This document shows, piece by piece, positions 9,186-63,278 of a stretch of DNA of 63,293 bases (its first letter is position 1; every line of letters begins with the position of its first letter). Under the pieces are notes generated by a model. That model saw only the letters and a list, made by a program, of their open reading frames with translations, did not search any database and was not told where the DNA came from. Position numbers and translations under genes: made by a program. The stretch is from a virus, in the UHGV virus genome UHGV-0247968; one strand, written 5' to 3'.

Positions 9186-9561
9186 GCTCACCGACATCAT
9201 GGAGCAGGAAAAGGAACTCGAACGCAGTATCCTTTTGGAACTCGCTGCTGCCGGGTCGTCGTCCATGAAGATAGATGGCGTGGGCCGTCTTGTGGTCAAG
9301 GAAAAGGTCCGTTACGAAATAGCGGACAAGGAAGCGCTGGCCTATGCCGTGCTGCGCGGCATGGTTGAAAATGCTGAACAGGGCTTTGCTTTGAGTGATG
9401 GTCTGCTGTTGCAGCAGCGCGTCGCTGCCCGCAACTTCGAAGAACGCGCCGAGCGTGCCGGTCTCGAAGGCGAAGCCTTTGATAACTACATCGTGTCATG
9501 CGGCCTTCGCCGTGTGGCAGAACCCTCCCTCAATTTCACCAAGGAGAAGAACCATGAGTGA
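9133..9561 (+). CDS. coiled-coil protein, Siphovirus Gp157-like (tentative)
   Basis: N-terminal coiled coil (EIRAKKKALQDKLTDIMEQEKELE) followed by KIDGVGRLVVKEKVRYEIADKEAL. Overlaps the 3' end of the previous gene by 53 nt in another frame. Confidence 0.4.
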   Translation: MASELSEIRAKKKALQDKLTDIMEQEKELERSILLELAAAGSSSMKIDGVGRLVVKEKVRYEIADKEALAYAVLRGMVENAEQGFALSDGLLLQQRVAARNFEERAERAGLEGEAFDNYIVSCGLRRVAEPSLNFTKEKNHE

Positions 9562-10741
9562 GACCAATCTTGTTCCTGTCGTCGTCAATAACCAGCCCCC
9601 CATGCTCGCCGACGGGCAGTTCTCTGGTGTCGTCGACACCCTGATGGACAACGCTTTCTCCGGCTTCGGCGCCGGGCTGCGTATCCTCAAGCCGGGGAAG
9701 ATGAGCTTCAAGCTCATCGAGAACCGTCAGGAAGTCGACATCCCCAACGGTCAGGTCTTTGGCGTCCTTCTGGGTGTGGCGCCTTGCAACTACGCTTCGT
9801 GGTATGCCAGACAGTATGCTCCCGGGCAGGAACCGTCTCGCCCTGACCTCGTGTGGATGATGCCTACGGCTGACACGTTCCCCGACGCGCTCCCTGCCGA
9901 ATACCACCAGAAGGTGAGCGTCAACGGGCAGGAGCGCTGGGGGTTCCGTATCGCCCGCCGTACCGTGTGGGCCCTGATGACCAACCAGAATGGGCAGTTC
10001 TACCTCGACCTTGAACGCCCCGTCGTCCTGGACATCACCAGCACCAGCCTCTACGGCAACTCCGACCCGCGCAGCAACAGCTACCGCTGGGGCGGCATCA
10101 AGGGCTTCTGTGACCGTCACAGCCAGCCCGGCGTCTTCCGCTGCAACCCGGCTATGTTCGTGACCCAGATTATCCTTGACCCGCAGAGCCCCGTCTCCGG
10201 CGTCATGCTGTTCCGCCCCAACCTTGACCAGAACGGTAATCCGGCTTACCTTGACAGCCAGACTTACACGTCTGTAATCCAGACGGCCAGCACTGAGCGC
10301 ATCACTGAAATGCTGCGCGTCAACGAAATCCTGACCTATACCCCCAATGGTGTCGGTGCTATCCAGCCCGTCCCTGCGGCGGTCAATATCGGCAACAGTG
10401 CGCAGGTTATGCAGCCTATGGCCCAGCCTGTGCAGCAGCCTGCGCCTCAGCCTGTGCAGCAGCCCATGGCCAAGGTCGCGCCTTCTGGTATGAATGACAT
10501 GCTGTCCCGAGCTGCGGCTGTGCTGGATGGTGCTCCGGCCCCCGCTGCCCAGCCTGCTCCGGCCCCGGCTCCCGCTGCCCAGCCTGCTCCGGCCCCGGCC
10601 CCGGCTCCCGCTGCCCAGCCTGCTCCGGCTCCGGCTCCGGCTCCGGCCCCCGCTGCCCAGCCTGCTCCGATTCAGGCCAATGTGAGCAAGGAAGCCTCTG
10701 ATGCCCTCACTGGCATTCTGGCTGATGTTGCCGGTTACTAG
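9554..10741 (+). CDS. hypothetical replication/recombination-module protein with a Pro/Ala-repeat linker and an acidic/aromatic C-terminus
   Basis: RBS AAGGAGAAG before the ATG at 9554. C-terminal (AAQPAPAPAP)n then ...SDALTGILADVAGY. Function unknown; could be an SSB or annealing protein. Confidence 0.5.
   Translation: MSETNLVPVVVNNQPPMLADGQFSGVVDTLMDNAFSGFGAGLRILKPGKMSFKLIENRQEVDIPNGQVFGVLLGVAPCNYASWYARQYAPGQEPSRPDLVWMMPTADTFPDALPAEYHQKVSVNGQERWGFRIARRTVWALMTNQNGQFYLDLERPVVLDITSTSLYGNSDPRSNSYRWGGIKGFCDRHSQPGVFRCNPAMFVTQIILDPQSPVSGVMLFRPNLDQNGNPAYLDSQTYTSVIQTASTERITEMLRVNEILTYTPNGVGAIQPVPAAVNIGNSAQVMQPMAQPVQQPAPQPVQQPMAKVAPSGMNDMLSRAAAVLDGAPAPAAQPAPAPAPAAQPAPAPAPAPAAQPAPAPAPAPAPAAQPAPIQANVSKEASDALTGILADVAGY
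10409..10669 (+). repeat. imperfect Q/P/A-rich tandem repeats (QPVQQPAPQPVQQP; AAQPAPAPAPAP xN)
   Basis: Variable-length hexamer (ccggc[ct]) expansions read directly from the sequence. Confidence 0.8.
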
Positions 10742-10770
10742 TTGACAGACAACTTGTAGACGGCTATATA
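10742..10770 (+). promoter_or_regulatory. near-consensus sigma70 promoter TTGACA-17-TATATA
   Basis: Begins immediately after the stop of the 9554 gene. Precedes the primase-helicase leader. Confidence 0.55.
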
Positions 10771-10949
10771 GGCTCCATGAGGTGGTCGACCAACCACTTC
10801 ATGGAGCCTCAACCTGAACAAGAAGGTTTTCACGGAGGCGGGAATCGAGGGAAGTCTGGATTTATGAGGGCTTGAAGCACCCTCGTGTCCGCCCAGACTG
10901 AATGGTGGTTCTACTGAGATTCCCTCCTCCCTGAAAACCTTCTTTTCAT
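10771..10949 (+). promoter_or_regulatory. highly structured 5' leader: 15-bp hairpin (10771-10808) plus a 24-bp imperfect long-range inverted repeat (10822-10845 / 10919-10942) enclosing a hairpin and followed by TTTTC
   Basis: ggctccatgaggtgg/ccacttcatggagcc. gaaggttttcacggaggcgggaat pairs with attccctcctccctgaaaaccttc with 2 mismatches. The T-rich tract after the 3' arm suggests an attenuator or terminator-like element. Confidence 0.45.
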
Positions 10950-10961
10950 AGGACACAGCGT

Positions 10962-13900
10962 ATGCTTCAGCAAACAAGACGTTTCCTTTCGAGTCTGCTC
11001 CCCCCGCTCCCTCCCCGTGAAGACTCTTTCAGCTTCCCCACATATTTTTCTCTGGGTATCAAAGACGGTTCCCGTCGGCAGAGCCCTTGCCCCAGTATCG
11101 ACGACATAATCTCCGAAGGATTTTCCCTGTCGTCACAGGGCTACAACGCCTACTTCGCCCTCGCCTCTTTCGCTGATGGTGCGGCAGGGCGCAAGCAGGT
11201 GAATGCGCGTACCCTCAAAGCCTTCTGGGTAGACCTTGATGTAGGTAAGCAAGGTATCTCCTACCCTACCATCCAGTTCGCAGCCTTTTGCCTGAACCGT
11301 TTCGTGCGCGAGACGGGTCTCAATCCGTCGTGGATTATCCATTCCGGTAAGGGCCTGCATGTATATTGGGCCCTGTCTGAGCCTGTGCCGGTCTCCTGGT
11401 GGCGCCGCGTCGCTTTCATGCTGGAAAAGGAATGCGCCGCTTTCGACCTCTGGGCAGACCCGGCTTGCACCAAAGACCCGGCGCGTGTGTTGCGTCTTCC
11501 GGGCACCATCCATCAAGGCACCGGCAACACCGTGTCCGTGGTGCGGGAGACCGGCTGGGTATGGGAGCCGCACAAGTTCGTGGAAGTCATGCTGACTTCC
11601 ATGGCGGAGAAACATCCTGATGCCATCATCAAGCTCAAGGCGGAGCTTAAGCCTGCTGTTCCTCAGAACATCGCGCAGACGCCGCAGCTTGCGGTATTGA
11701 CCGGCAATGCGCTGTTCTCCGACGACATGGGGTTCACATCTTCCGCTCCGGTGGCGAAGTCCGAACCCATAGTGCGTGGCTGCCGTCAGATGCTCTTCTC
11801 CGGTAAGGGGCAAGAGCCGCACTGGTATGCCGCCATGTCCGTGTTCAAGCGCTGTGTGGACGGCAGGGAGTGGGCCCATGCCGTGTCGGCTCTGGACAAG
11901 GAACGCTACAATCCTGCCGACTGTGACGCGAAGTTCGACCATGCCCCCGATGACGCTCCCGCCCGGTGCGAGCGCTTCGACAGCTTGAATCCCGGGGTAT
12001 GTCCTGCATGTCCGCACTGGGGCAAAATCACTTCCCCTGTGCAGTTGTGGCGGAAGTCGCAGAATGCCGGTGAAACGTTCGTGCAGCAGCCTGTGGCCCA
12101 GCCGGTGCAGCAGCCTGTGGCCCAGCCTGCGCCCCAGCCGGTGCAACGACTCATCATCCCGGAAGTCTTCGACCACCCGCGTATCGGGTTCCGCAGCAAG
12201 CGTTACAGCGTGGATGACAGAGGATGCATCTGGCACAAGTCGGAGAAACAGGACGACGGTTCCTGGGTGACGACAGACCATATCCTCACCACATCCCAAG
12301 TCTATTACATCAAGTCGGAATGGACATACACGAATGGTGTTTCTGAGCGTTCGCATTGGTTCGAGGTGCGCCACAAGCATGGGGCTGTCGAACTGATGCG
12401 CTTGCCTGCTTCCACGCTGGCAAGCAATCAGAGCCTTATGGCCGCGCTCAATTCTTCCAACATCCTTTCGTGTAACCTTGACATGTACACCCCTAAAATA
12501 TTTGCAAGTTTTATGAACAGCTACCTTCGCAGTGTTTTGGAAAACGGGTACAGTACAGAGATTCAGACGCGGGATGTGTTCGGGTGGACGGACATTACCG
12601 ACCCCGTGACGAACCAGCCCACGTTGGGTTTTGGCGTGGGCCATGGTGTCATCACAGATACCGGCATCCACGACATGGTGTATAAAGGCTCGGCTGAAAA
12701 GCTGGCGAAGAAGGAACTGTCCATCAAGGGCGACCTCGACAAATGGAAGTACGTCCCGCAGATGTACCGCATCCTCAACCAGCCTGCTGCCCAGCTCGCT
12801 ATCTGCCTGTCCTTCGCGGCTCCGCTCATGCACTATGGCCCGGGCGTCGTGCGTTCCGCTGCCTACTCTTTGTGGAGCACCACATCCGGCAAGGGTAAGT
12901 CGCAGGTGTTGTGCTCCGCCGCCTCCATCTGGGGGCATCCTGAAGAGCAGTTCGTGCAGCGCAATTCCTCTGCCGTCATGCGGATGAGGAAAATGGCCGT
13001 GCTGAACAATCTGCCCGTCTACATGGACGAACTTTCGGACATGAAAGACGAAGACCTCTATGCCCTCGCCTACAGCCTCATGGGCAATCAGGAGAAGCAG
13101 AAGCTCAAGAGCAACGGTGCTGAGATGGTCGACACCGGTTCATGGTCTACGGTCACGTTCATCACGTCGAACAAGTGCATCAAGGAAGCCGTTGCCCGCC
13201 ATGCCGGGGATTCGGAGGCCAGTATCGTGCGCGTGATGGAGTATGAGTGTGACTTCCCCTCGTATGCCGACAAGCCGGAAGTGCAGGAATATATCCACGC
13301 GTGCATGGATGCCTGCAAGACGAACTACGGCCTCGCCGGGCCCGAATTCATCTATCAGGTCTTGAAGCACAGAGACCGGCTGGCGACGCTCACGCAGCAG
13401 GTGGAGACGTGGTGTCGTAAATACGGCTTCGACAACTCGGAACGCTTCCTGAGCTATCCCTTGGCGATGGCGATGAAGGCCGGGCGCTGGGCTGTGGAGT
13501 ATGGTCTGTTGGACTATGACATGGACGCGCTGGAGAACTGGGTCATCAATGTCTTCGTGCCGCATAACCGTCGCAGCACCGAAGCGAATACGTCTGACCC
13601 CGTGCATATGCTGACGACGTACCTCATGGAGCGCCAGCTCAATATGCTGGTGGTCAGGGCCAACCATCGTGACAAGACCATGCCCGAGCAGCCGCATGGG
13701 GTACCGGACAAGTACATCGTGAGTCTGCCCAACAATAGGGACATTACCATGCGGGCCGTGCTGGCGACGCAGGAATTGTACATCTCGCGTTCCGACCTGC
13801 ACAAATGGCTCAAGGCCCAGAAGCATTCGCCTTCCAATCTCTGGAAGCGTCTCGAAGACAGAGGCATCACAGCCAAAGATACGACCAAGAATTTTGGTGA

Positions 13901-14030
13901 GAATATCGGCTGGATGCAGCTTCCCAATACACGCTGCTACAGGCTTGATGCCACGAGCGTGAAGCGGCTTGGCTTCAACATCAAGGATGCCCCGGCCCTT
14001 GAGGCCACGGCAAACGTGAAAGTCCTGTAA
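10962..14030 (+). CDS. primase-helicase: N-terminal AEP/prim-pol domain fused to a D5-like SF3 helicase
   Basis: AEP motifs VDLDVGK (DxD), GLHVYW (sxH), RVLRLPGTIH. Walker A SGKGKSQV, Walker B VYMDELSDM. 1022 aa. Confidence 0.8.
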   Translation: MLQQTRRFLSSLLPPLPPREDSFSFPTYFSLGIKDGSRRQSPCPSIDDIISEGFSLSSQGYNAYFALASFADGAAGRKQVNARTLKAFWVDLDVGKQGISYPTIQFAAFCLNRFVRETGLNPSWIIHSGKGLHVYWALSEPVPVSWWRRVAFMLEKECAAFDLWADPACTKDPARVLRLPGTIHQGTGNTVSVVRETGWVWEPHKFVEVMLTSMAEKHPDAIIKLKAELKPAVPQNIAQTPQLAVLTGNALFSDDMGFTSSAPVAKSEPIVRGCRQMLFSGKGQEPHWYAAMSVFKRCVDGREWAHAVSALDKERYNPADCDAKFDHAPDDAPARCERFDSLNPGVCPACPHWGKITSPVQLWRKSQNAGETFVQQPVAQPVQQPVAQPAPQPVQRLIIPEVFDHPRIGFRSKRYSVDDRGCIWHKSEKQDDGSWVTTDHILTTSQVYYIKSEWTYTNGVSERSHWFEVRHKHGAVELMRLPASTLASNQSLMAALNSSNILSCNLDMYTPKIFASFMNSYLRSVLENGYSTEIQTRDVFGWTDITDPVTNQPTLGFGVGHGVITDTGIHDMVYKGSAEKLAKKELSIKGDLDKWKYVPQMYRILNQPAAQLAICLSFAAPLMHYGPGVVRSAAYSLWSTTSGKGKSQVLCSAASIWGHPEEQFVQRNSSAVMRMRKMAVLNNLPVYMDELSDMKDEDLYALAYSLMGNQEKQKLKSNGAEMVDTGSWSTVTFITSNKCIKEAVARHAGDSEASIVRVMEYECDFPSYADKPEVQEYIHACMDACKTNYGLAGPEFIYQVLKHRDRLATLTQQVETWCRKYGFDNSERFLSYPLAMAMKAGRWAVEYGLLDYDMDALENWVINVFVPHNRRSTEANTSDPVHMLTTYLMERQLNMLVVRANHRDKTMPEQPHGVPDKYIVSLPNNRDITMRAVLATQELYISRSDLHKWLKAQKHSPSNLWKRLEDRGITAKDTTKNFGENIGWMQLPNTRCYRLDATSVKRLGFNIKDAPALEATANVKVL
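12078..12143 (+). repeat. QQPVAQPV tandem repeat inside the primase-helicase
   Basis: cagcagcctgtggcccagccggtg x2.5 read directly. Confidence 0.7.
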
Positions 14031-14065
14031 ATACAGAAGAAAACAGCGGGCATAGATAGAAACAA

Positions 14066-14122
14066 GAAGCCCCCTTATGTCGACCAATGCGGGCGGAGTG
14101 TCGACATAAGGGGGCTTTTTTT
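14066..14122. terminator. bidirectional intrinsic terminator between the convergent + and - blocks
   Basis: gaagcccccttatgtcgac ... gtcgacataagggggctt followed by TTTTTTT on the + strand. T-rich (cttcttgtttc) on the - strand. Confidence 0.75.
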
Positions 14123-14174
14123 GTATCCGGCATCCTGGAGGGAACGGGAGGTAAAACCAGGACGACGGAAATAT

Positions 14175-14777
14175 TTATTCGGCGATGTCGATGGTGATGG
14201 GGATACTGTTCACAGCCGTACCATTGCAGTTCGTGGCGCACACGCTCATGGAGAACTGTCCCGATACGTTCGGTGTGCCGGACAGCGTGACCGTGTTGGC
14301 TTTGGTCTCGACCTGCATCCAGTCAGGAGCACCGTTCACCCCCAGGGTCATAGGCATCGAACCATAGAACGCTACATGCCCCATCCACGGCTGACCCTTC
14401 GTACAATCAGGGAATCCATAACCACCGACTTCTACCGGTTCGCATTCACAGGGACCTTCGCAGCAGGTGTAATTGCACACAAGGTCTTTGATGGCGGCGA
14501 TGATAGTGGGAGAAACGGTGCGGACACAGGCGCCATACGCGAACGTCTGGGGTTTGGTGCCCCCGATACCGCGTTCCAGCAACAGTGTGCCGTGGTCGTT
14601 CCGCACCTTCACGGTCTCCATATCGGTGTCGCCGACGATGGACAGGTAGGTGTAGTCGTCTTCACCACTGAGCAGGTCAAGCAAGTCGGCCTGCGCCTTG
14701 CTGACGATAGGAAGGTCGAGGTCGCTGGCTTCGAGTTTGCGTATCAGGAATGTGGTGAAATACTTGTTTTTGAACAC
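14175..14777 (-). CDS. hypothetical Cys-rich protein (last gene of the - strand structural block)
   Basis: ORF. Contains CNYTCCEGPCECEP. Confidence 0.45.
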   Translation of the reverse strand: MFKNKYFTTFLIRKLEASDLDLPIVSKAQADLLDLLSGEDDYTYLSIVGDTDMETVKVRNDHGTLLLERGIGGTKPQTFAYGACVRTVSPTIIAAIKDLVCNYTCCEGPCECEPVEVGGYGFPDCTKGQPWMGHVAFYGSMPMTLGVNGAPDWMQVETKANTVTLSGTPNVSGQFSMSVCATNCNGTAVNSIPITIDIAE

Positions 14778-14792
14778 GACTGTGTCTCCTGT

Positions 14793-15347
14793 CTACTTGC
14801 TCGCAGCAAGTCTGTGTTCAAGTTCTACTACACGCTTTTCGAGTTTGGCAAGGGCTTCTTCAGAAGCGAATCCGATATGCCCGCTGTTGACGTAGTCGAG
14901 GTTGGACAATGCGCGGTGGTCACTCGTTCCGGGAGGGCCGGGAGGACCTTGCTTGCCCGGGGAGCCGGTTTTTCCGGTAGCTCCAGGGCGTCCTTCCGGG
15001 CCAGGGTCGCCCTTCGGGCCAGGGTCGCCTTTCGGGCCAGGTACCCCGCGCAGACCACGCTTCCCAGGGATACCTTGTCTGCCGGTTTCACCGGGAGGGC
15101 CGGGAGGGCCGGGAGGGCCGGTGAGACCCTGTTTGCCGGGGGAACCCGGTTCCCCTTTGGGCCCCGTCTTACCGGTGTTGCCGGTGTTACCCTTGTCGCC
15201 CTTTAGCGGTTCGCCCCACCGCAGGAGACAAGGCGAAGAACTGTCAAAGATGAGAGCTTGTCCATCCTTGCCACCGGGCGGGATACCGATGACGGGATTG
15301 ACAGGGTAGCCTTCATCGCAACCGTAAGGGATGTCGTGCCGTGCCAT
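14793..15347 (-). CDS. collagen-like (G-X-Y)n repeat protein, probable tail fiber component
   Basis: About 32 consecutive Gly-X-Y triplets ([25 protein letters not shown]...) at 14925-15215, followed by a coiled coil. Confidence 0.7.
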
Positions 15348-15938
15348 TTATACCTCTTCGTCACACGTCCCAAGCACGAATTGTACCTGGGCCATGTCGA
15401 TAATGTGTTCACTGCATCGAGGACCGTAGTCTATATCGAACCGCGCCAAAACGCAAAACAACGGCTTGGGGGGCAGGTGCACCGGAGAATGGATACTCAG
15501 GTCAGGAACACACGGAGAATCAACAGGATGCGGTGTATCACGGATGGTGCGGAGCATTCGGAAATCGAGTGGCTTGTTGAGTGCCGGGTGATACTGCAAC
15601 ACACCGGTGTAGCGTCCCCAAGGCAGTGTGCGGAACACGTCGGGGATACGGAACTCCACAGTGCCATCTTCTCCCCAGGAGAATGCTCTGCATACGATAG
15701 GGGCGAAGTCAGGCGGTGCAGGATTCGCCACATCGACATCGACGCGATGCCCGGGCCAGCAGCCGTGCAGATACCACGGACTTCCGCCGACGTGACACCC
15801 GCAGGCGCAATCATTGTCGACTTGCCCGGGCACGATGGTCAGTACGACGTTGCGCCAGTCCTGCAAGATACGATTGTTACGCCAGTCTTTGATACGGATA
15901 CCGATGCGGGTGACATCTTCGGTGAGCGACAGAATCAT
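15348..15938 (-). CDS. hypothetical protein
   Basis: ORF between the large virion proteins and the collagen-like protein. Confidence 0.4.
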   Translation of the reverse strand: MILSLTEDVTRIGIRIKDWRNNRILQDWRNVVLTIVPGQVDNDCACGCHVGGSPWYLHGCWPGHRVDVDVANPAPPDFAPIVCRAFSWGEDGTVEFRIPDVFRTLPWGRYTGVLQYHPALNKPLDFRMLRTIRDTPHPVDSPCVPDLSIHSPVHLPPKPLFCVLARFDIDYGPRCSEHIIDMAQVQFVLGTCDEEV

Positions 15939-15939
15939 C

Positions 15940-18900
15940 CTAACCCCTCGTCTGGTAATAGTTCAACGCGCTTACGGCTGCATCGTATAGGTTCCCGGAC
16001 GAAAGCTCAAGGTTGGCGAATGCGGTACGCAGTTCTTCCGAGTCTTCCATCGCGAGCCACCTGTCCTTGTATTCCTTGTTGAAGTCCGTGCCGTTCTTCC
16101 GAAGCGCTTTGTCGGTTTCCCAGATGAGCATGTAGTCGGAAATCTCTTCCGGGGTGAAACCGATTTTTTCGAGCTGGGCCTGACGATAGGCTCCGGCGTC
16201 GACGCTGCGGTCAGGTGACGTTATCTTCACACCGGAACGCCGGATGCGGGATTCATATTCCTCTTTGGCGTTGTAGTACAAAAGCTGGCTCGACTTCCCG
16301 GCATTCCCGAACCATGTGGACGTACCAAGTCCACGCAGCAGCGGGTGCATGTCACGAAATTCGGACATGCTCTGCGACCCTTTGTAGAGGGCTTCGTTCT
16401 CGACAGCACCCATGACCATGCGCAGAGGACCGGTGAGGATGCTCTTCGCCATGTAGCGCAGTTGTTCAGGAGCGAAGTCGATGCCGGTCTCGCTGTTGAG
16501 GCGTTTCGCCATGTTGTGCCAGATGACCGGGGTATTCGTTCGGCCCGTAGACGACAGCGCCGTCGTACCCTGGGACGACTCACGGGTTATCTCTTGCCCG
16601 AAATACGACCGGTTGATGGCGACATCGACAAAGGGGCGCAGGGGCGGCGGGCAGAGAAACGCTGCCAGATAATCGGCAGGATGTTCCGTGAAGCGATAGT
16701 CGGGCCAGTTGCCCGGCATGGTGTTCTTGACCGTGAGGAACAGCGTATCGAAGGCCAGGTCTTGCGGAGACATGAGACCGCTCGCCACACGTTCCTGACC
16801 GACGGACAGCATGGCCGCTATCTGCGGCAGACCAAAACCGACAGGGAAGCGGACGAAGTCTCCCTCAGACCCCATGCCGATGGGTATACCGCGCACCAGC
16901 TCGGACAGCGACATGGCATCCATACGATACTTGCCATTATCATCCCGGCCAAGGGATTCCCGGGCCAGCGGGTACAACATGGAATACGCCCCGTAGGCAG
17001 CCAGCAGCCCCATGTAGCCTCGCATCCCCTGTTTGATGATGTCACCTGGAGTACGCGCACCGAGACCCAAGGTGCGGGCCAGGGCCACACCAGATTCCAC
17101 AGTGGGTACGACATAGGGGAACAGGACGCGAAGGTACGGCGTCAGTTCACCACGATGGCTCAGGTTCATCATTTCCAGCACGCCACGGGCTGCACGGCTT
17201 GCCGGTACTCCGGCTTCGCGCAGGGTGACGAACTGGGAAAAAGCACCCGCATTCTGGAAGAAGTCGTTCCAGCCATCCAGTACACGCATGACTTGGTTCT
17301 TCGACGTGCCGAGACTTCGCAGCCAGCGCGCTACGCTGGGGCCCCCGTAGTTGACGATGGCCTTCTCCAGCCGGGAAGAAGCATCCGGCAGTCCAGAAAT
17401 GGTCCCGGATTCTTCGACCGGAGACCGCTGTCCCTGGATGTATTTCTGGAACAGACCGCCACGACGATATTCTTCCAGATATTGGTACATGGGATTCGAT
17501 TCGTCGAGCCTGCCCTGCATGATGTCCAGCAAGGCTTTGGATGCCCTCGGCGTGTTTGCCAGCACTTTCGCTGCCAGAGAGCTGCCTTTGATGCGAGTAC
17601 CGTCTTCAGCGTAGTAGTCACGATTCACCATGTTGGATGCACGTTCCATCACATCACGAGAACCGGACAACGGAGCGAACAGAGGCGAGAACCGCGTGTT
17701 GAGCTGGCTGACAAGACTGGTGAAACGCCCGGCAGCTTCGACCGGTAACCCGGCGCTGCCCAGCTTGTAATCGCTGGACATGGCATTGTTGAGCATTTCA
17801 CCGGTGAGACCGGATTCCACATGGGACCACTTGGGGTCGAAGCGAAGGTAACGCCTTTTGATGACAGTCTCACCGTCAGCAGTAGGCGTAGGTACATCTG
17901 CCACGATACCACCCCCGGTAAGGAGCTGGTCAGCGATGGCGCGCTGCTTGGGATTCGTGCTGTGAGACATCCGCATGAGGGAGGCGTAATCGTAGGTCTT
18001 GATACCAGAAGCGTCGATGGCGCCGGTCTCCAGCAGATGGTCAGCAACGGCGAACATGTTCACAGCAAATTCACGAGAACCGACTTCGGTCGCCGCCCTG
18101 TTGATGTAGAAGAACAACGTGTCATACGCGCTGTCAGGACGGGACGACCGCCCCTGGATGGCGTAGTACGACCCGGGATTGTATGCCGTGCTGTCGTTCG
18201 ATACACCGAGCAGGTTGCTTTCACGGGTTCTGATAGCGACGTAATGCTCGAACCCGGGGAAGCTGTCCAACACTTCTCGTGAGACGACACCGGCATTGAC
18301 GCGTTCTTCAAGCACCATGTCGAAAAGACCGGAGATACCATCAGCGATGGTGTCGGCTTCTTCTTTGGAAAGACCGGTCTCTCGCAGGATGCGTTCCATC
18401 TCGAACTGCGCTTCCCCGTTGGTGTAGCCTGCGGACACGAGGTCTTCGGGGAGGTCGGTAGTTTCGTCGATGAAGTCTTCGAGCTGTTCGATGTTGCGTT
18501 CCAGCTCCCGCAGACGCTTCTTGTCCCTGCCGTCCATATCAGGGCCCTTGCTCACAATGTCTTCAGCTTCATCCATCCAGCGCCCGAGCAGCAAATCGTT
18601 GGTCTCCGGGATGTGCCTGCACACAGCATAGTGGCCCATAACACGCGCAAGGTCTTCCAGGCTTCCCGTCCAGCCTATACGACGGGCAACAGGTTCGAGC
18701 GATTGTGTGAAGCTCGCGACACGGTCGCGCATGAGCAGATTCAGTGCGCGGACCTTCTGGGGTGTCTGGTCGAAGATGCGCCAGAGAGTGTTTTCGTTCG
18801 TCGGGCGGTCGGCCTGGTCGGCAAAGAGTCGGGCCCACTTGGCGAAGCCGCCGCGAACATTAACGAACTTCGTGTATATGCCGTTCTGGAAGTTCAACCA

Positions 18901-31251: not shown

Positions 31252-31755
31252 TTACTCCGCAGACTGGAGCAGGGCCGCGATGTCGGCCTCGATACCGTGG
31301 TAGTAGTTGTCGAGAGGCTGGGCCGCGTAGGGCATACGGGTAGCTTCTTCGACGCTTTTCGAGGTCGTGATTTCTTCCATCGTGGGCTTATGCTCACCAG
31401 AAAACGTCTGGGCCTGTTTGATGACCGTGGCATGCGCTTCGGCCAGCAGAGCGTCACGTTCGGCAGGCGTGTATTCCGCCGGATTGACGGTGGTAAGCCA
31501 CGCCTTGGGGTCCGTGTTGCCGTTGCTATCGCAGCATTCCATGATGTCACGCTGCTCGGCCAGTGTCGCATCCCAAGGGAAGACGATACCGTTCTTCTTG
31601 CTGCGCAGGTGCGAAGAACGCGGCAACGGAGGAACCGCGTTCTTCGCACCTGCGGTGTAAAGGGCTTGCTGCCGTGCAGTGGTGTCACGGATATCGAGGA
31701 TGTTATGCAAGTCCTGGGGCGGGACAGGGGTGGCATCGGCAAGAGGCTGATACAT
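31252..31755 (-). CDS. hypothetical structural protein
   Basis: ORF. Confidence 0.4.
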   Translation of the reverse strand: MYQPLADATPVPPQDLHNILDIRDTTARQQALYTAGAKNAVPPLPRSSHLRSKKNGIVFPWDATLAEQRDIMECCDSNGNTDPKAWLTTVNPAEYTPAERDALLAEAHATVIKQAQTFSGEHKPTMEEITTSKSVEEATRMPYAAQPLDNYYHGIEADIAALLQSAE

Positions 31756-54639: not shown

Positions 54640-54830
54640 GGCTCACCAGGAACGCATGACTGATGCTCCACAGGAATGTATCCGGTCCCTGCAACACCCC
54701 GGGCGTATCACCCTAGTTTCACCCGGGACATCGTTCAGGCAGTTTTGGTTGTACCCCAGGAGCGCGCCATAGTCAACATTGACATCCTCCCCCGCCTAAA
54801 GTCGGGGGATTCCTATCGGTAGCGGCTCTA
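54640..54830 (-). ncRNA. putative TnpB-associated omegaRNA / right-end RNA
   Basis: By analogy with IS605-family elements the guide RNA overlaps the tnpB 3' end and extends to the right end. Strong secondary structure is visible (ggaggatgtc..., cccgggtgaaactagggtga...). Not verified. Confidence 0.3.
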
Positions 54831-56030
54831 ACGAGCCGCGCCACAGGCGGGTTCCTGCTTCGACGCGGGCGCTTGAGCCCTTCCCGCTCCACAGGCTGTC
54901 ACGGCCTGCCCGGCCGCCAGAATGTTCAACGCCGCATTATGGTCAGCGTTGCATTCAAATCCGCAGGCCGTACAGCTGAATTTCGCCTGCGTTGGTCTGT
55001 TTGCCCTGTCTACGCATCCGCAATGGCTGCATGTCTGACTGGTATACTGCGGTGGAATGACAATCAGCACACCTCCCAGCCATTTCAACTTGTACTCAAG
55101 CTGTCTGCGGAACTCATACCAGCCCTGATCCAGTATGGACTTGTTTAATCCTGCCTTTGCCCGCACATTTTTCCCCGGTGCTTCAAGCGTACCGGAAGCC
55201 GAACGCGACATATTCCGCACTTTCAAATCTTCAATCACGACAAGAGCGTGGTTTTTGCTGATTATCGTGGTTGTCTTGTGCAGAAAATCGTTGCGTACAT
55301 TGGCTATTGTACGGTGCAGGCGCTGGATTTTGGCTTTGAGCTTCTGCCAGTTGGCGGAAAACTTCACTCGTTTTGCCAACTTCCGCTGCAGCTTTGCCAG
55401 CTTCTTTTCATGCTTGCGGAAACTGTGCAGTGGTCTGATAGAAGAGCCATCGGAAAACGTCGCAAAACGGGCAATGCCCATATCTATGCCGACGACACTT
55501 TGCGAAGGATGCACAGGTTCTGGAACTTCCCGTTCCGTCTGAATGGAGACGTACCACTTTCCAGCGGAAAGAGAGACTGTCACCTGTTTCGGCGTTCCCT
55601 CTATTTTGCGGCTGTTGCGGTAGCGTATCCACCCGATTTTGGGAAGGAATATGCGGTCGTTCCTCTCGTCCAGCTTGAAACCCTGCGGATAGCGGAAGGC
55701 GTCATGAACCCCCTTTCTCTTGAAACGCGGGAAATTCGCACGCTTCGCAAAAAAGTTTTTGTAGGCCCTATCGAGATCTTTCAACGCTTGTTGCAGAATT
55801 TGAGAATGGGCTTCAGCAAGAAAAGATGTGTCGTTTTCCTTCTTCCAGTCCCGAAGGGCTTCGCAGAGCAAGGAAAACCCCAGACGCTTCCCTTCCTTTT
55901 CATAGGTCTCTTTTTCCAATGCAAGCGCCTTGTTCCAAAGGAAACGACAACAGCCGGCAAAGCGCCGCATGAGGCTTTCCTGCCCGGTTTTGGGGCGGAG
56001 CTGAAACTTATAGGCTTGCAATCTTTCCAT
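54828..56030 (-). CDS. tnpB: TnpB (IS605 OrfB-type RNA-guided nuclease)
   Basis: MERLQAYKFQLRPK start. RuvC-like motifs GIDMG, VVIEDLK, NADHNAALNI. Zinc finger CSHCGC...CTACGFEC. Confidence 0.85.
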   Translation of the reverse strand: MERLQAYKFQLRPKTGQESLMRRFAGCCRFLWNKALALEKETYEKEGKRLGFSLLCEALRDWKKENDTSFLAEAHSQILQQALKDLDRAYKNFFAKRANFPRFKRKGVHDAFRYPQGFKLDERNDRIFLPKIGWIRYRNSRKIEGTPKQVTVSLSAGKWYVSIQTEREVPEPVHPSQSVVGIDMGIARFATFSDGSSIRPLHSFRKHEKKLAKLQRKLAKRVKFSANWQKLKAKIQRLHRTIANVRNDFLHKTTTIISKNHALVVIEDLKVRNMSRSASGTLEAPGKNVRAKAGLNKSILDQGWYEFRRQLEYKLKWLGGVLIVIPPQYTSQTCSHCGCVDRANRPTQAKFSCTACGFECNADHNAALNILAAGQAVTACGAGRAQAPASKQEPACGAAR

Positions 56031-56303
56031 AGGTTCCAGTCTATCGCAGCACAAACGAAAAGGCAAAAATTCCAGTTAAGGTGCGCCTTATATCCCCGCC
56101 CTGAAGGGCGAGGCTTTACGGCGCGCTGGGTAAAATCTGGTGCCCCGCCCCATCAGCTCAACCGCAGGCGGTATGGGGCGGGGACTTTCAAGTTTGGCGT
56201 TCCAGGGTTGGCGTCCGGTCGCGTACCCCAGAAACACATCGGGTGTGCAGTCACCCGACAGCAAACTGTACAAAACGTCACGTCGTCTTGCTGTTGGCTG
56301 AAC

Positions 56304-56975
56304 CTACTTGGAAGACGCTCCGGTGTCAAGAGCTTTCGGGGCCAGGGCCAAAATCTTGTGCATGGCCTGCCGCAAATACTCAGCTTCCCACTCAGCATCG
56401 TGCAGGGCGTGGTGCGCGACACCGGTATCGGGGACCTCGACGGTGATACCGAGGGACTTCGCCATGAGCTCCACGGTTCTGAGCGACTGGTTGTTCCGGT
56501 AGGTCCACACCTTCGACAAGAAATCGGAATCATCATAGCACGCAATCGCGTCACGCCAGATGACATTATCGAACTCCGGTCCCTTCCCCCAGAACTGCAC
56601 ATCGGTACCGGACCGAACAGCAGAGTACGACATGACCCAGCGCACAAAATGCCGCGCGGCAAAATACAGGGAGACGGCATCGTTGTCGTCGAACACGGCT
56701 TCCCGTGCAGCAGGACTGGTCTTCATGGCCCACCACCGCACCGTATCATAATCCATGATACGGCCCGGCTGGTTGTCACCACGAACAGTACAATAGAACC
56801 TGCCGATGACTTCATAGTGTTCGTCGAGGGCCACGGCACCGATGGCTACGATGACAGGTCTGAGACCAAGCCCGAGCGTTTCGAGGTCGATGACCACATG
56901 CAACAGGGTGCGGTCCCGCCCCTGGATGTTTTCCTGCACACGATACATTTCGGTGCCACATTCTTCTTTATCCAT
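56304..56975 (-). CDS. DEDDh-family 3'-5' exonuclease (DnaQ-like)
   Basis: Exo I VIDLETLGL; Exo III HHALHDAEWEAEYL. ATG at 56975 after GGGAGG. The table ORF extends upstream without an RBS. Confidence 0.75.
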   Translation of the reverse strand: MDKEECGTEMYRVQENIQGRDRTLLHVVIDLETLGLGLRPVIVAIGAVALDEHYEVIGRFYCTVRGDNQPGRIMDYDTVRWWAMKTSPAAREAVFDDNDAVSLYFAARHFVRWVMSYSAVRSGTDVQFWGKGPEFDNVIWRDAIACYDDSDFLSKVWTYRNNQSLRTVELMAKSLGITVEVPDTGVAHHALHDAEWEAEYLRQAMHKILALAPKALDTGASSK

Positions 56976-57002
56976 ATATACCTCCCGTATGTATAGAGCT
57001 GT

Positions 57003-57031
57003 GTATAACAACACGCACAGAAAATAGCAAC
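57003..57031 (-). promoter_or_regulatory. possible promoter for the - strand operon (TTGCTA-17-TATACA on the - strand) in an AT-rich stretch
   Basis: Divergent intergenic region 56976-57587. Confidence 0.3.
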
Positions 57032-57302
57032 ACGAAAAGTAAAATACAAAATTTTTCAGGTAAGTGAAAAGATATTCGAGTGTGGGGCCTGTCCAGATGG
57101 GGTGGGGTAGTGATGCATAGTGGGAGAATTTCGAAGGTGGAGAAGGTTGTGAGCGCAGCACAGAATGTACGTTTTCTCTACGGGTCGACGGAACCGCCGT
57201 CCAAACCCACCTGGCCCTCGCCGAACGCGCTGCCGCCCTCGCGCCCAGGTCCCCGCCTAAGTATCTGAAATCATTGAACTTTTCGATATACAAAATACGT
57301 TA

Positions 57303-58259: not shown

Positions 58260-59205
58260 CAAAACAACCTCTCCCCCTTCCATGTGGTGCCTCTATGTCT
58301 GGGATACCCGCCTGAGTGATAGGTTAACGACGGAACCGCACATGGTGGTGCGCTCCAGTAATCTGGTGCGTCCAGTGTGAACATGTGCGGATAGTGTCGT
58401 GTGGTGTGAAGGCACGACACAAAGGGCCGATGTATGATTAGCACACTGCGTGTGCGAGTTATACAGAGCGGCCCATGTATGACTGGCACGCGACGTGAAA
58501 CTATTACGCTGCGTGCCAGTCATACAATGAAGCTGTTTCACCAGCGAAAGTAAAAACAACTTACGTCAAATGTGATAATGTTTCTCAAAAGTCTTTGAAG
58601 GCTTTTTCGAGTGTTGTTTTTACTGAATTTTACATGATTTTAACACTCGCGAAAGTTTAGCACTCGCGAAAGATGAAGTGTGAAACTTTTGCGCGTAGGC
58701 AAAACTTATGCGAGTGTGTAGCAAGAAAATGCAACAATACAGGAAAAAAGTTGCGAGAAAACGACGAACACTCGCGAAAGTTCTGCCTACGCGCAAAAGT
58801 TTCACAGTTTGACTTATGCGAGAGAGTAAACTTTCATTTTGCTGTGAAGATTCCTGCAAAAGCTGCATGGCACCAAACAGCAAGGGAGAAGAAAAGAAAA
58901 AATACAATAATAATAATATATTATATATTATATATATTATATATATATTCTTCCTTCTCACAGAAGAAATTTCTTTTTCATTTTTCTGCCGATTTTTACC
59001 CCTTGCTGGAGATTTTTCGCGGGTTGAGAATGTTGCGTGTTTTTTGCGCTGTTCTCCCCCTTCTCCACATTCTTGGCTGTTCTTTCCAAATCGGCAAAAA
59101 ACTTTCAATCTTTTATGAGTAGCCTTCCTCACCTTCTCTACCTTCTTACTCACACAAGGCTACTCACTTTGTTTTTCAACCCCAAAAAGTGTCGAGGGAG
59201 GACAC
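58260..59205. repeat. ~950-bp AT-rich non-coding region with iterons and inverted repeats (candidate replication origin / regulatory hub)
   Basis: CACTCGCGAAAG x3 (58644, 58661, 58769). 22-bp inverted repeat gtgaaacttttgcgcgtaggca (58680-58701) / tgcctacgcgcaaaagtttcac (58784-58805). Direct repeats ACTTATGCGAG (58703, 58811). TGTATGA(C/T)T iterons direct at 58431 and 58476, inverted at 58511-58526 (16-bp perfect IR with 19-nt spacer). (TA)n/ATATT microsatellite 58900-58950. Confidence 0.6.
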
Positions 59206-60463: not shown

Positions 60464-61423
60464 ATGGAATATTGTCTCTACGACTTCGGTGAGATTTTCA
60501 CCGGCAAGAAGTCGGGCAAGCTGGTTCCCGGTTTCACCGGTGACCCTGTGCATCCGCTGGCTCCGGCCTGCGTGGCCGACTATGAGTACCCTGCGTGGAG
60601 CCGTGACGTGTTCCTGTGGTGGTGCGGCGAGAAGCCCGAGCCGCTGTATATCGGCGGCCCGACCGGCTGCGGCAAGTCAAGCCTTATCCGTCAGCTCGCT
60701 TCCAGACTGCTCTACCCTGTCTATGAGGTGACTGGCCATTCCCGGCTGGAGACGCCGGAGCTTATCGGTCACCACGCCCTGAAGGACGGCGCCACTGTCT
60801 GGGTGGACGGCCCGCTGACTTCGGCTATGCGGCACGGAGGCATATTCTTAATTGACGAAGTGGACTTGCTCGACCCGGGCACGGCCACTGGTCTGAACAC
60901 TGTCCTCGATGGCGCTCCCCTGTGCATCCCTGACACGGGCGAGACTGTCATGCCCCATCCCGGGTTCCGGTTCGTCGCCACTGCCAACACCTTCGGCGAC
61001 GGCGACATGTCGGGCAGGTATCAGGGCACGCTGCGGCTGAACGCCGCCTTCATGGACAGGTTCGTGGTGCTTGAGGCCACGTTCCTGCCCGAAGTCGCGG
61101 AGCTGCGCCTGCTCGCCCGTCGCGCCCCGTCGCTGCCGGAAGAACTGCGCAAGGGCATGGTGCGGCTGGCGGGCATGGTGCGCGACCAGTCGAAGCTGCC
61201 CAGCGATGTGCCCCGGGCCCAGGCCCTCGAAGGCATGACCTTCTCGACCCGCACGCTGCTCAGGTGGGCGACGTGGACGGAGGCGTGCAGGCCGCAGGCC
61301 ATGCGTGCCGGTGAACCCCCCGTCGCCTATGCGCTCACGAGAGCGCTGGGCAACAGGTGCGGAGAAGGTGGAAGACGTGTGCTGGATGAGCTTGTCCAGC
61401 GTGTGTTCGACATCAGCAAGTAG
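60464..61423 (+). CDS. AAA+ ATPase of the MoxR/CobS (AAA_5) type
   Basis: Walker A GGPTGCGKSS, Walker B IFLIDEVDLL, sensor-1 VATANT. Typical partner of VWA proteins. Confidence 0.75.
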   Translation: MEYCLYDFGEIFTGKKSGKLVPGFTGDPVHPLAPACVADYEYPAWSRDVFLWWCGEKPEPLYIGGPTGCGKSSLIRQLASRLLYPVYEVTGHSRLETPELIGHHALKDGATVWVDGPLTSAMRHGGIFLIDEVDLLDPGTATGLNTVLDGAPLCIPDTGETVMPHPGFRFVATANTFGDGDMSGRYQGTLRLNAAFMDRFVVLEATFLPEVAELRLLARRAPSLPEELRKGMVRLAGMVRDQSKLPSDVPRAQALEGMTFSTRTLLRWATWTEACRPQAMRAGEPPVAYALTRALGNRCGEGGRRVLDELVQRVFDISK

Positions 61424-61435
61424 GAGGATTGACCT

Positions 61436-61969
61436 ATGGGTATCTACAGTGATGTTGCCCTGGTGCTGAACAGCAAGGGTATGGAATGTCTCAACGCGCA
61501 GCTTGAAAAGCTGGACAGGGACATGCGTGATGACGTGCTGGAGTTCCTCGGCTGGGCCGACGAAGAGGCCGAGAGCGCGAGCGAATGGTTGCTGTGCTGG
61601 CGTGACATCAAGTGGTATGGAGACGACACTATCGACGTGCTCGTGAGTATCCTGGATGCGATGCCCGAGGCGTACTACAGGTTCCGGCGCGTCGAAGAGA
61701 CGGGCGATTCCGAATACTATGGGGAGCTGTGTGGCGAGTTCAACGTCATCGCCGTGCACAGGCTGCAGTGGAGGGACACGACGGTCGTGCCCGCGCCGAC
61801 GCTGTACTCTCTGCGACCGCCCGTCATCACGGCTGAGGATGTGGCCGATATGCTGGGCATGACCGTGGCCCAGGCCGAAGATTTCCTGCTCGATAACAGC
61901 ACCCGCATCATCCAGCGCATGATGGCCTCGGCCTGGTCGGCCATCGCAGACATCAAGCGCAGCATGTGA
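61436..61969 (+). CDS. hypothetical protein
   Basis: ORF with AGGAGGATTGACCT upstream. Confidence 0.45.
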   Translation: MGIYSDVALVLNSKGMECLNAQLEKLDRDMRDDVLEFLGWADEEAESASEWLLCWRDIKWYGDDTIDVLVSILDAMPEAYYRFRRVEETGDSEYYGELCGEFNVIAVHRLQWRDTTVVPAPTLYSLRPPVITAEDVADMLGMTVAQAEDFLLDNSTRIIQRMMASAWSAIADIKRSM

Positions 61970-61979
61970 GGATACGACG

Positions 61980-62300
61980 ATGACGCGCAAAGAATACCTC
62001 GACCTTTCCCGTCTCGGCAATGGCATCGAAGCCTTCCACCAGTATTACAGCCAGTTCGTGACGCCGTATGTGACGGAAGTCGTGCGGACGTACATCGGTG
62101 AAGACATCATCCGGGCGTCGAAAGACGTTCACTTCAACGACATCCCCATCAAGCTGTGGGACAAACTCATTCCGCTTGTCCGTCACGGCATCGCCAGCAA
62201 GAACGAAAAGCTCAACGGTACGCGGGCCGTGTCCGAGTGCGAGTGCGTGTGCACGCTGAAGACTGCGGCCCATATCATCAGGGACAGTTTCAACAACTAG
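61980..62300 (+). CDS. hypothetical protein
   Basis: ORF. Confidence 0.45.
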   Translation: MTRKEYLDLSRLGNGIEAFHQYYSQFVTPYVTEVVRTYIGEDIIRASKDVHFNDIPIKLWDKLIPLVRHGIASKNEKLNGTRAVSECECVCTLKTAAHIIRDSFNN

Positions 62301-62312
62301 GAGGAAAGCACC

Positions 62313-63278
62313 ATGTCCGAAAACAACGTGAGCTACATGAACAACTGCGTGTATCTGAAGCTGGACATCTCCATCTGGACGGGCAAGGCCCGCCTCACCC
62401 CCGAAGACATCCCCGATGCCGTGGTCGACATGCCGCCCGAGGCGCTGGCTACGCTCGGTTCCAAGCGCATCTTCGACCCCCAGGCGTTGCGCCCCTTCAA
62501 CGCCGCGAAGACCAAGGCGTTCCGCACCTGCGACCAGTACGGTGTGCGCTGCATGGGCGGCTGGCTGGTGGATAACGGCGTCCTCAACATTCTGACTGCC
62601 GAGCTCGACAAGCTGCGCGGAGAGTTCGACCGCAGCGTCGGTACGTTCATCTCCACCTATGAGGACGGGGCGTCGAACTGGCTCCAGCAGTTTCCCGAAT
62701 GGGAGGGCATCATCCGTGCCGCCTTGCCCGACAGCACGGACATCGGGAAGAAGTTCGCGTTCAGGTACTACGTCCTCAAGGTGCAGACCGAGAACCACGA
62801 CGCCCAGGATGCGACTTCCGAGGCCCCGTCAACGGCTGCTGCTACCATCGCCGCTGAGATTGCCCGCATCAGGGAGCAGGTGTTCAACGACGACCGCACG
62901 TCGCCCGTGACCAGCAAGACCTTCTGCTGCCTCGACACCCTCGCCGACCGGTGTGACAACATGTCCTTCGTGCATCCCGGCTTTGCCCATCTGGCCCATC
63001 TGCTCCGCAGTATCGTGGTCAACAGCACCGACGTGAATGTCGTGCGCGCCTTCCTGACCGGGCTCTCCACGCCCGAGGCCGTGGCCGCCGTGACACAGGA
63101 GACTCGCATCTATGACTTCGAGAAGGACAGCCTCGATATGCCCGAGCCTGCTGCGCCCGTGGATATGCCTGAGCCTGCTGCTCCCGTGGAGATGCCCGAG
63201 CCTGTGGCCCCCGTCGTCACCAGCCAGCCCACCACTGCCGACGACAGCCTCGCTGCCCTTCTCTCTGACTTCATCTAA
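62313..63278 (+). CDS. hypothetical protein (possibly the DUF3150-type protein that accompanies phage CobS/CobT-like pairs) with a C-terminal (DMPEPAAPV)x3 repeat
   Basis: AGGAGGAAAGCACC ATG. Assignment to DUF3150 is from memory of gene neighbourhoods only. Confidence 0.45.
   Translation: MSENNVSYMNNCVYLKLDISIWTGKARLTPEDIPDAVVDMPPEALATLGSKRIFDPQALRPFNAAKTKAFRTCDQYGVRCMGGWLVDNGVLNILTAELDKLRGEFDRSVGTFISTYEDGASNWLQQFPEWEGIIRAALPDSTDIGKKFAFRYYVLKVQTENHDAQDATSEAPSTAAATIAAEIARIREQVFNDDRTSPVTSKTFCCLDTLADRCDNMSFVHPGFAHLAHLLRSIVVNSTDVNVVRAFLTGLSTPEAVAAVTQETRIYDFEKDSLDMPEPAAPVDMPEPAAPVEMPEPVAPVVTSQPTTADDSLAALLSDFI
63135..63212 (+). repeat. 27-bp tandem repeat x3 encoding (D/E)MPEP(A/V)APV
   Basis: gatatgcccgagcctgctgcgcccgtg x3 read directly. 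Confidence 0.85.

Follow-up and report, generated by a model that had tools for sequence, protein, structure and literature searches.

What does a 220-nucleotide (nt) gap filled with predicted RNA structure do in front of a phage replication gene? The question is raised by UHGV-0247968, a phage-like viral genome of 63,293 nt (63 kb), the whole of which is referred to here as the window. Within its replication module, which lies on the + strand, the gap separates the gene of a ~395-amino-acid (aa) protein from that of a DUF927 primase-helicase, and a promoter, hairpins, a long-range inverted repeat, and a ribosome-binding site (RBS) are all located inside it. A first description made from the DNA letters (the sequence-only reading) had taken the gap for an attenuator or a protein- or RNA-responsive leader that controls expression of the replication gene. 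After comparing 18 primase lineages, we assign a probability of roughly 0.5 to the reading that the gap encodes a leader-embedded antisense hairpin that represses translation of the primase-helicase. An RNA-responsive leader is close to what the evidence indicates. The complementarity between an apical loop and the translation initiation region (TIR) of the gene is the conserved feature that the first description had missed, and it points to translational rather than transcriptional control.

The structure of the leader is exceptionally strong, as had been claimed. The RNA of positions 10742-10975 folds with -103.5 kcal/mol versus -66.9 ± 4.4 kcal/mol in 200 dinucleotide shuffles (z = -8.3), none of which is as good, and the element alone attains z = -6.1. 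The long-range inverted repeat was first described as 24 bp with two mismatches and an enclosed hairpin; the hairpin and the two mismatches (C.C and C.U) are present, but the arms are 27 nt long. They are 93% complementary with 71 nt between them, and the repeat ranks second-longest in the window among inverted repeats with arms up to 250 nt apart. The resulting long stem, P1, consists of 13 + 5 + 7 base pairs (bp) split by 1x1 mismatches, and minimum free energy (MFE) folding lengthens it to 10813-10952, or 33 quasi-continuous pairs. Direct repeats of note, iterons, and AT tracts were looked for in the 220-nt gap and none was found. A three-codon mini-open reading frame (ATG AGG GCT TGA, 10863-10874) lies inside the element and was dismissed on the window sequence.

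The apical loop of the hairpin enclosed by P1 contains the segment UUGAAGCA, which is complementary to UGCUUCAG at the beginning of the primase-helicase gene. The target lies within the TIR, which comprises the Shine-Dalgarno (SD) sequence and the start codon. In positions counted relative to the A of the start codon (A = 0), the window target spans +1 to +8, and the predicted UUGAAGCA/UGCUUCAG duplex has 8 bp, one of which is a U.G pair, with an energy of -10.7 kcal/mol and an empirical P of 0.011. The heptamer TGCTTCA occurs at 11 sites on both strands of the window, among which the primase start alone was seen behind an obvious SD and ATG.

Relatives of the primase-helicase provide the comparison on which the argument depends. 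Among cultured phages (phage collection) there are no nucleotide matches, and protein relatives are only ~24-26% identical at best. Scans of IMG/VR, metagenomes, and GTDB, on the other hand, returned many uncultured contigs of about 40-66 kb whose primase-helicases are 36-98% identical to that of the window. The contig names that state a source give human gut, plus one rodent caecum, and one contig is binned with a Clostridia metagenome-assembled genome. The discovery set comprises seven lineages: the window type, L057 (71% identity), L063 (44%), L067 (42%), L110 (42%), L026 (39%), and L027 (36%). A protein search then yielded ~22 further clusters with less than 62% mutual identity, of which 12 contigs were examined and 11 had usable upstream DNA; these 11 make up the replication set. 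L118 was left out as its contig stops 56 nt upstream of the gene.

Despite their variation in sequence, the seven discovery lineages share one layout. The promoter lies at the stop codon of the upstream gene or shortly past it, a G+C-rich hairpin is frequent, and a long stem enclosing 32-71 nt stands before the RBS. All 11 replication lineages show the same synteny with a gap of 110-270 nt. Under one automated rule, a quasi-continuous stem of 22-35 bp is found in 18 of 18 lineages, and the distance from stem to start codon is 9-45 nt (9-18 nt in the window, L110, L115, L117, L121, L123, L124, and L125). The sequences of the elements are unrelated between lineages, and yet in the seven-lineage set each beats its own shuffles, with z between -3.9 and -8.9. 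Each lineage carries different arms that are still complementary, so that the conservation or compensation of arms expected in relatives is indeed seen. MAFFT failed to align the element across lineages (one alignment was mis-registered), and since the element is unalignable between lineages, each was folded separately under a uniform rule rather than by covariance models or cross-lineage pair counts. In the L034/L068/L069 lineage and in primase relatives of lower identity (23-32%), the site holds only a short gap or an ordinary intrinsic terminator, and the elaborate leader is therefore, on this sampling, a lineage-specific acquisition.

The loops of these unrelated elements are complementary to the translation starts of their own genes. 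L110 repeats the window arrangement, with loop UGAACCA facing UGGUUCA at +1 to +7, and the loop-target pairs of the two lineages differ by a compensatory change from G-C to C-G. In L067, loop UUUCAUGUUC faces GAACAUGAAA at -4 to +5, and in L057, UGGAUG faces CAUCCA at -5 to 0. The SD itself is the target in L027/L028 (loop C(G/A)CCUCUU, target AAGGGGUG), in L026 (GCUCC, GGAGC), and in L063 (AGUUCC, GGAACU). Examples from the replication set are matches of 11 nt in L115 (-5 to +5) and L116 (-12 to -2), 9 nt in L121 (+1 to +9), and 8 nt in L124 (-4 to +3). Every target falls inside -17 to +9 of the start codon; in most lineages the loop-TIR pairing amounts to 7-11 bp and the duplex energy lies between -7 and -20 kcal/mol. 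Some loops (window, L067) have a YUNR U-turn motif, which is not general. L116 and L119 share the apical-loop motif CUUUGGUCAGGCAA despite differing stems. In the L027 lineage, CUCUUCUU at the end of the upstream gene, further out, is also able to pair with the SD.

Two procedures were used to assess these matches. The uniform rule takes the apical loops of the element MFE structure ± 1 nt, finds the best contiguous helix against -20 to +10, and uses all 30-nt windows of the locus as the null. For the seven discovery lineages it gives P = 0.011, 0.20, 0.029, 0.045, 0.006, <0.001, and 0.011, and the cognate assignment of loops to TIRs is the best of all 5,040 permutations. The automated pipeline, applied to 18 lineages, folds the gap, takes the longest quasi-continuous stem, refolds the enclosed region, and scores the apical loops against the TIR; its longest-stem picker superseded a most-pairs picker, which picked an incorrect domain in L115 and, in other lineages, domains that span the whole gap. 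The pipeline gives P ≤ 0.05 in 13 of 18 lineages, with a Fisher P of 1.2e-7 for the seven discovery lineages and 2.6e-9 for the 11 lineages fetched afterwards. In the 18 x 18 matrix of loops and TIRs, the cognate sum is 153.5 versus 97.6 ± 5.8 when permuted, a value reached by none of 200,000 permutations, and the cognate TIR is the top partner for 9 of the 18 loops. Base composition and SD-richness are excluded as explanations because the permutation null uses real TIRs.

Several observations weigh against translational repression by the loop. The loop match is non-significant in five of the 18 lineages (L057, 0.20; L119, 0.18; L120, 0.20; L122, 0.12; L125, 0.54), and in some (L119, L125) the best complement lies in another hairpin or in an unpaired strand. 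When the whole inner region is set against the TIR, the result is marginal per lineage (RNAduplex shuffle P 0.011-0.24; sliding-window P 0.013-0.49) and is not relied on. The loop definitions depend on MFE predictions, and the restriction to loops was adopted only after the first seven lineages had been seen; it is because the loop rule was chosen post hoc that the 11-lineage replication and the permutation test matter. Finally, presenting a loop needs no long stem, and the role of the stem itself is left unexplained. In L119, the best anti-start-codon loop, AAGGAACAU, which pairs with AUGUUCCU, belongs to a small hairpin of its own, immediately 5′ of the long stem.

The element also bears the marks of selection on one strand. 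The 18 elements together contain 670 predicted bp, among which 76 G.U pairs stand against seven A.C 1x1 mismatches, an A.C being a G.U on the opposite strand, and in six of seven lineages the + strand folds more stably than its complement. This excess of G.U over A.C is the reason to regard + strand RNA as what is selected, and it points to the element acting as + strand RNA. Eleven haplotypes of the window lineage provide the within-lineage diversity. Nucleotide diversity (π) is 0.105 in the upstream gene, 0.079 in the promoter, 0.097 in hairpin 1 (the hairpin at the promoter), and 0.046-0.063 in the primase gene, and it falls to 0.0015 in the element (10820-10944; a single variable site, 10862) and to 0 in the SD linker (10945-10961). 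The element thus has one variable site versus 35 and 45 in the first and the second 300 nt of the primase gene and is, by this measure, under purifying selection. Between types the opposite holds: window and L057 elements are 53% identical versus 48 ± 2% in shuffles, while identity in their primase DNA is 62-77%. The arms of the long stem are invariant in the L027 lineage, where the stem of the inner hairpin differs by three compensatory pairs around a kept anti-SD loop, CCUCUU. By analogy, invariance within types together with saturation between them would be the pattern of sequences that determine specificity, for example immunity regions or the incompatibility RNAs of plasmids. With its strand specificity, its selection, and a conserved sigma-70-like promoter upstream, the structured leader can be tied to the primase-helicase gene, as had been proposed.

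Table 1. Positions of the leader features and of the genes of the replication module, in window coordinates.
Feature	Position	Strand	Details
Apical loop	10871-10879	+	9 nt; contains anti-TIR segment UUGAAGCA, 10872-10879
Primase-helicase TIR	10950-10970	+	SD AGGA 10950-10953; ATG 10962-10964; loop target UGCUUCAG 10963-10970
Enclosed hairpin bearing the apical loop	10853-10899	+	7 bp, internal loop, 8 bp; MFE and centroid structures identical
Long stem P1, 5′ arm	10820-10846	+	pairs with 10918-10944
Long stem P1, 3′ arm	10918-10944	+	pairs with 10820-10846
Weak hairpin in the three-way junction	10900-10911	+	4 bp; MFE only, without comparative support
Hairpin 1	10770-10786 / 10793-10809	+	17-bp stem with one G.U; 6-nt loop; no U-tract
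Sigma-70-like promoter	10742-10770	+	-35 TTGACA 10742-10747; 17-nt spacer; -10 TATATA 10765-10770
DUF927 primase-helicase (proposed regulated gene)	10962-14030	+	1022 aa; Pfam PF06048, 1e-15; PHROG DNA primase/helicase families
~395-aa protein	ends 10741	+	Pro/Ala/Gln-rich tail; stop codon TAG 10739-10741
DUF7307 protein	8956-9561	+	
SNF2 helicase	6880-8841	+	
PD-(D/E)XK nuclease	5153-5839	+	
Family A DNA polymerase	3009-5141	+	

The bias toward G.U pairs also bears on the idea of a DNA-level element, that is, a replication origin, a primosome-assembly site, or a cruciform. Large inverted repeats that adjoin a replication initiator/helicase gene would suit such a role, yet pairing selected on one strand would not be expected of it, the gap has neither iterons nor an AT-rich tract, and complementarity to an RBS is meaningless for DNA. 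The window moreover holds a much better origin candidate at 58260-59100, and we find the DNA-level explanation of the leader barely credible; a structure formed by the + strand as single-stranded DNA may be a variant of it. The region 58260-59100 comprises ~800 nt of non-coding DNA with three copies of CACTCGCGAAAG(T/A)T, 55-nt inverted-repeat arms at 58663-58717 and 58768-58822 (84% complementary), a 21-bp hairpin at 58476-58526, and an extreme (TA)n/(TAA)n tract at 58891-58958, and it looks like a replication origin or a major regulatory hub.

The invariance of the element within lineages raises the question of a protein ligand. In such a scheme, the primase-helicase or another phage protein would bind the leader and autoregulate translation, as do T4 gp32, gp43, and RegA. 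The stem arms, their mismatches, and the junction are sequence-invariant within lineages beyond what pairing alone needs, and mismatches of the pyrimidine-pyrimidine or C.A type are found repeatedly at ~12-15 bp from the base of the stem; judging from the invariance of the arms, a protein partner could exist. As an explanation of the whole leader, however, a protein operator is quite unlikely, for not one nucleotide is conserved between lineages though the primase is conserved, and the loop-TIR complementarity is left unexplained.

The length of the stem suggests ribonuclease III (RNase III), whose substrates are double-stranded RNAs of at least 20 bp. The predicted stems of all 18 lineages reach that length of ~20 bp of largely uninterrupted duplex, all being 22-35 bp with 1x1 mismatches, and in some lineages the predicted transcript has the stem at its very 5′ end. 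The element could then be a processing or mRNA-stability device and nothing else, whose stem, by being cleaved or by shielding the 5′ end, sets the half-life of the primase mRNA or separates it from the upstream operon, with a functionless match between loop and TIR. This explanation is unlikely, though not to be dismissed lightly. It accounts neither for the lineage-specific co-variation of loop and TIR in the permutation test nor for the near-invariance of loops and junction beyond the stem. RNase III processing is also compatible with the antisense-hairpin model and could be one component of it.

The sequence that follows the stem bears on transcription attenuation, a mechanism proposed in the sequence-only reading. 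The U-rich TTCTTTTC, said to follow the 3′ arm, does occur before the RBS (10940-10947), but its first five nt are part of the arm. If the long hairpin and TTCTTTTC formed an attenuator or intrinsic terminator, part of the transcripts would end before the primase gene, and U-rich sequence is found at or after the 3′ arm in the window (CCUUCUUUUC), L063 (GGUUUUUU), L110, L121, and L122. At least five T in the 8 nt past the stem are nevertheless present in only two of 18 lineages. In the window, the tail is TTCATAGG (3 T in 8) after the 27-nt repeat and ACACAGCG (0 T in 8) after the MFE-extended stem, most of the U's are paired within the stem, and the scanner calls no terminator at the site. 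The stems are also branched and far longer than those of canonical terminators. A conserved alternative antiterminator pairing was not seen: the window MFE and centroid structures contain none, and the 9-bp alternative that flanks the L027 3′ arm (GUUGGAGAC/GUCUCCAAC) is weakened and uncompensated in sister sequences. Because the promoter is upstream of the structure, transcripts of the primase gene must cross it. Canonical terminators are used elsewhere, both at 14064-14120 in the window and, in simple form, upstream of primase in more distant relatives. Attenuation has accordingly become a very unlikely explanation.

The terminator at 14064-14120 is a strong canonical one with a 21-bp stem and GGGGGCTTTTT, directly 3′ of the primase-helicase gene, and further + strand ORFs lie beyond it (14121-15206, 15258-16082). 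This arrangement brings to mind a cis-acting antitermination RNA of the HK022 put type, by which polymerase would read through the terminator into 14121-16082. The promoter-proximal position and stability of the leader structure and the ORFs behind a strong terminator would suit it. The leader has no similarity to put RNA and no Rfam match, and antitermination leaves the loop-TIR complementarity unexplained; we regard it as highly improbable. A riboswitch or other ligand-binding leader was rejected as well, since there is no conserved aptamer core (the element being unalignable between lineages) and no Rfam match in the window at the gathering threshold or in 17 related loci. When 10600-11100 was searched at E ≤ 10, the single match was a chance one to the rpsB sRNA.

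As had been noted, the TTGACA-17-TATATA promoter begins directly after the preceding stop codon, and transcription is predicted to start at ~10777. The -10 hexamer lacks the canonical final T, which is why the consensus scanner did not list the promoter. In the intergenic parts of the window, TTGACA-17-TAnAnn occurs at this one site only, and 15 of the 18 primase lineages have TTGAC(A/G)-17/18-TAnnnn at the corresponding position, 5-93 nt 5′ of the long stem; the distance from promoter end to stem is only 5-9 nt in four lineages. The scanner found no promoter-like site on the minus strand near 10.7-11.0 kb. In the L027 lineage (L027-L041, L072; e.g., L027 2820-2865), a second promoter-like site lies between hairpin 1 and the long stem. 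It reads TTGCCA-17-TATATC or TTGCTT-17-TAGGTT and is enclosed by a small hairpin, GUGUGA...UCACAC.

Hairpin 1 overlaps the start of the leader transcript. The transcript had been said to begin in a hairpin with a 15-bp stem; such a hairpin exists, but with a stem of 17 bp that includes one G.U. It is variable within the window lineage, where three different, independent G.U/U.G wobble substitutions all preserve pairing on the + strand only, and it shows compensatory changes in the L027 lineage. Its equivalents precede, enclose, or follow the -35/-10 elements depending on the lineage, and in some cases (L119, L120) a U-tract accompanies them; L026 and L110 lack the hairpin. Sequence comparison thus suggests that hairpin 1 is probably the 3′ hairpin of the upstream transcript, which overlaps the promoter. 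A role as an operator is disfavored by arms of 12-17 bp, by wobbles confined to the + strand, and by a location that shifts with respect to the promoter. A search for a further target site resembling seqA/seqC of P4 turned up only a 5-nt match in hairpin 1, and such a site was rejected.

In the proposed mechanism, transcription from the promoter directly after the upstream stop codon would yield an RNA with a very stable ~30-bp stem. In the window this stem would close a three-way junction whose topmost hairpin displays the anti-TIR loop. Pairing between loop and TIR would cover the SD or the start codon, block 30S binding, and repress translation of the replication protein. The modeled geometry has the loop 85-125 Å from the stem base in several lineages, with the target starting ~10-20 nt past that base; with the stem intact, intramolecular pairing would be strained, and the pairing is therefore probably mostly intermolecular: one whole leader would pair with another, or the stem-loop would first be released. 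A cis pseudoknot may form instead of a trans duplex. The long stem is a plausible RNase III substrate, and repression would rise with transcript and genome dosage.

A more far-reaching version of this model, on which we would place well under even odds, is that the element is an undescribed "sense-encoded antisense" leader RNA. It would carry a type-specific inhibitor on the tip of a nuclease-resistant ~30-bp stem and act from one molecule on another or once RNase III had released it, repression would grow with the copy number of phage genomes and transcripts, and only co-infecting phages of the same type would be cross-repressed. If this were true, the element would be an RNA incompatibility or exclusion determinant, and both its invariance within types and its saturated divergence between types would be accounted for.

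If the loop-TIR pairing works as proposed, widespread uncultured phages of ~60 kb control a core replication enzyme with a compact, RNA-only device. That device is absent from Rfam, and among the parallels found, the copy-control RNAs of plasmids and the immunity RNAs of P1 and P4 come closest. The 18 natural, orthogonal loop/target pairs form a test set for rules of RNA-RNA recognition and possible parts for synthetic translational control. They also open a testable route to how these phages time or limit replication and to interference between related phages. More generally, long palindromes in phage intergenic regions should not be classed as terminators by default.

Other parts of the window provide context for the leader. 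The gene upstream of it ends in imperfect tandem DNA repeats (10411-10669; periods 12/24 and 30/42) that encode QP(V/M)(A)QP and (PA)nAAQ repeats, and a low-complexity tail with a short amphipathic C-terminus is common to the upstream genes of all related lineages. The minus strand carries contiguous ORFs (~15.9-57 kb), within which a perfect 20-bp inverted repeat with an 11-nt spacer is found at 31604-31654. A full-length TnpB is encoded inside the phage genome at 54828-56066 (-), with HTH_OrfB_IS605, OrfB_IS605, and Cas12f1-like TNB domains. A protein with an Rv2179c-like 3′-5′ exoribonuclease domain (56304-57293, -; Pfam 8e-31) could be relevant to RNA processing in infection. The two window ends (60464-63278 and 55-2007) encode an AAA_5 (MoxR/CbbQ-like) ATPase, a DUF3150 protein, and a CobT/VWA-like protein; we suspect that the window is a circularly permuted genome and that these end genes form one cluster upstream of the replication module. 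A scan for tRNA and tmRNA genes found none, nor a tRNA-like element. Lysogeny genes were sought in 29 window ORFs (nine by Pfam and PHROGs, 10 by Pfam only, and 10 by PHROGs only), and integrase, repressor, and partition genes were absent from them. With zero lysogeny genes in that scan, a role in lysogeny or immunity is unsupported.

Among known systems, long and imperfect duplexes in leaders or intergenic regions, sometimes coupled to translation of the next gene, include the RNase III sites of the T7 early region, the lambda N leader, and sib. The element is likewise a long, imperfect leader duplex in a phage operon. The T7 sites, in contrast, are simple hairpins with an internal loop and have no loop complementary to a downstream start, which the element has. 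Masking of the SD or start codon by an upstream segment of the same RNA is the theme of the early transcripts of T4 e, soc, and I-TevI and of the long-distance interaction of the MS2 maturation gene. The element also places the complement of the SD or start codon upstream on the same RNA. In T4 and MS2 this complement forms an ordinary local or long-range helix with the TIR, whereas in the element it is displayed in an apical loop, at the distal tip of a rigid ~30-bp stem. Because the anti-TIR is held in that distant loop, MFE folding predicts no simple intramolecular TIR hairpin.

Plasmid copy control offers a second parallel. In R1 CopA/CopT and the RNAI of I-complex/IncB plasmids, loop-mediated ("kissing") pairing in the leader controls how much of a replication initiator is translated, and the loops are specificity or incompatibility determinants that diverge between types, as is proposed for the element. 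In I-complex plasmids, a leader hairpin loop pairs over a long range beside the rep RBS (PMC10724649). That pseudoknot (stem-loop I with repZ/repA) activates from a position beside the RBS, while the pairing proposed here covers the SD or AUG and should repress. The plasmid regulators are, moreover, countertranscripts from the opposite strand, while the antisense segment of the element sits in the sense leader; a countertranscript copy-control RNA was rejected, as no minus-strand promoter was seen and the G.U asymmetry favors the + strand.

The phage RNAs P1/P7 c4 and P4 CI share more of this arrangement. They are ~70-80-nt tRNA-like RNAs matured by RNase P, and the element differs from them in its 22-35 bp stem. 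Membership in the C4 family was rejected, given that neither the Rfam C4 model nor any other family is matched. The main action of P4 CI is premature termination at two sites (seqA and seqC), while the element has a single target at the SD or start codon. The function of c4 and CI is lysogenic immunity, and the 29 ORFs scanned in the window include no lysogeny genes. P1 c4 is nevertheless an antisense RNA derived from a leader (PMC8201110), and the CI RNA of P4 keeps its replication genes, primase included, from expression (PMC4825925). Both are stable stem-loops, lie in sense orientation in the untranslated leader of the operon they control, pair through a loop with a downstream target on the same transcript, and are type-specific, as is proposed for the element. 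By analogy, P1 c4 and P4 CI are thus the systems closest to it in logic, a likeness of logic and not of descent by homology.

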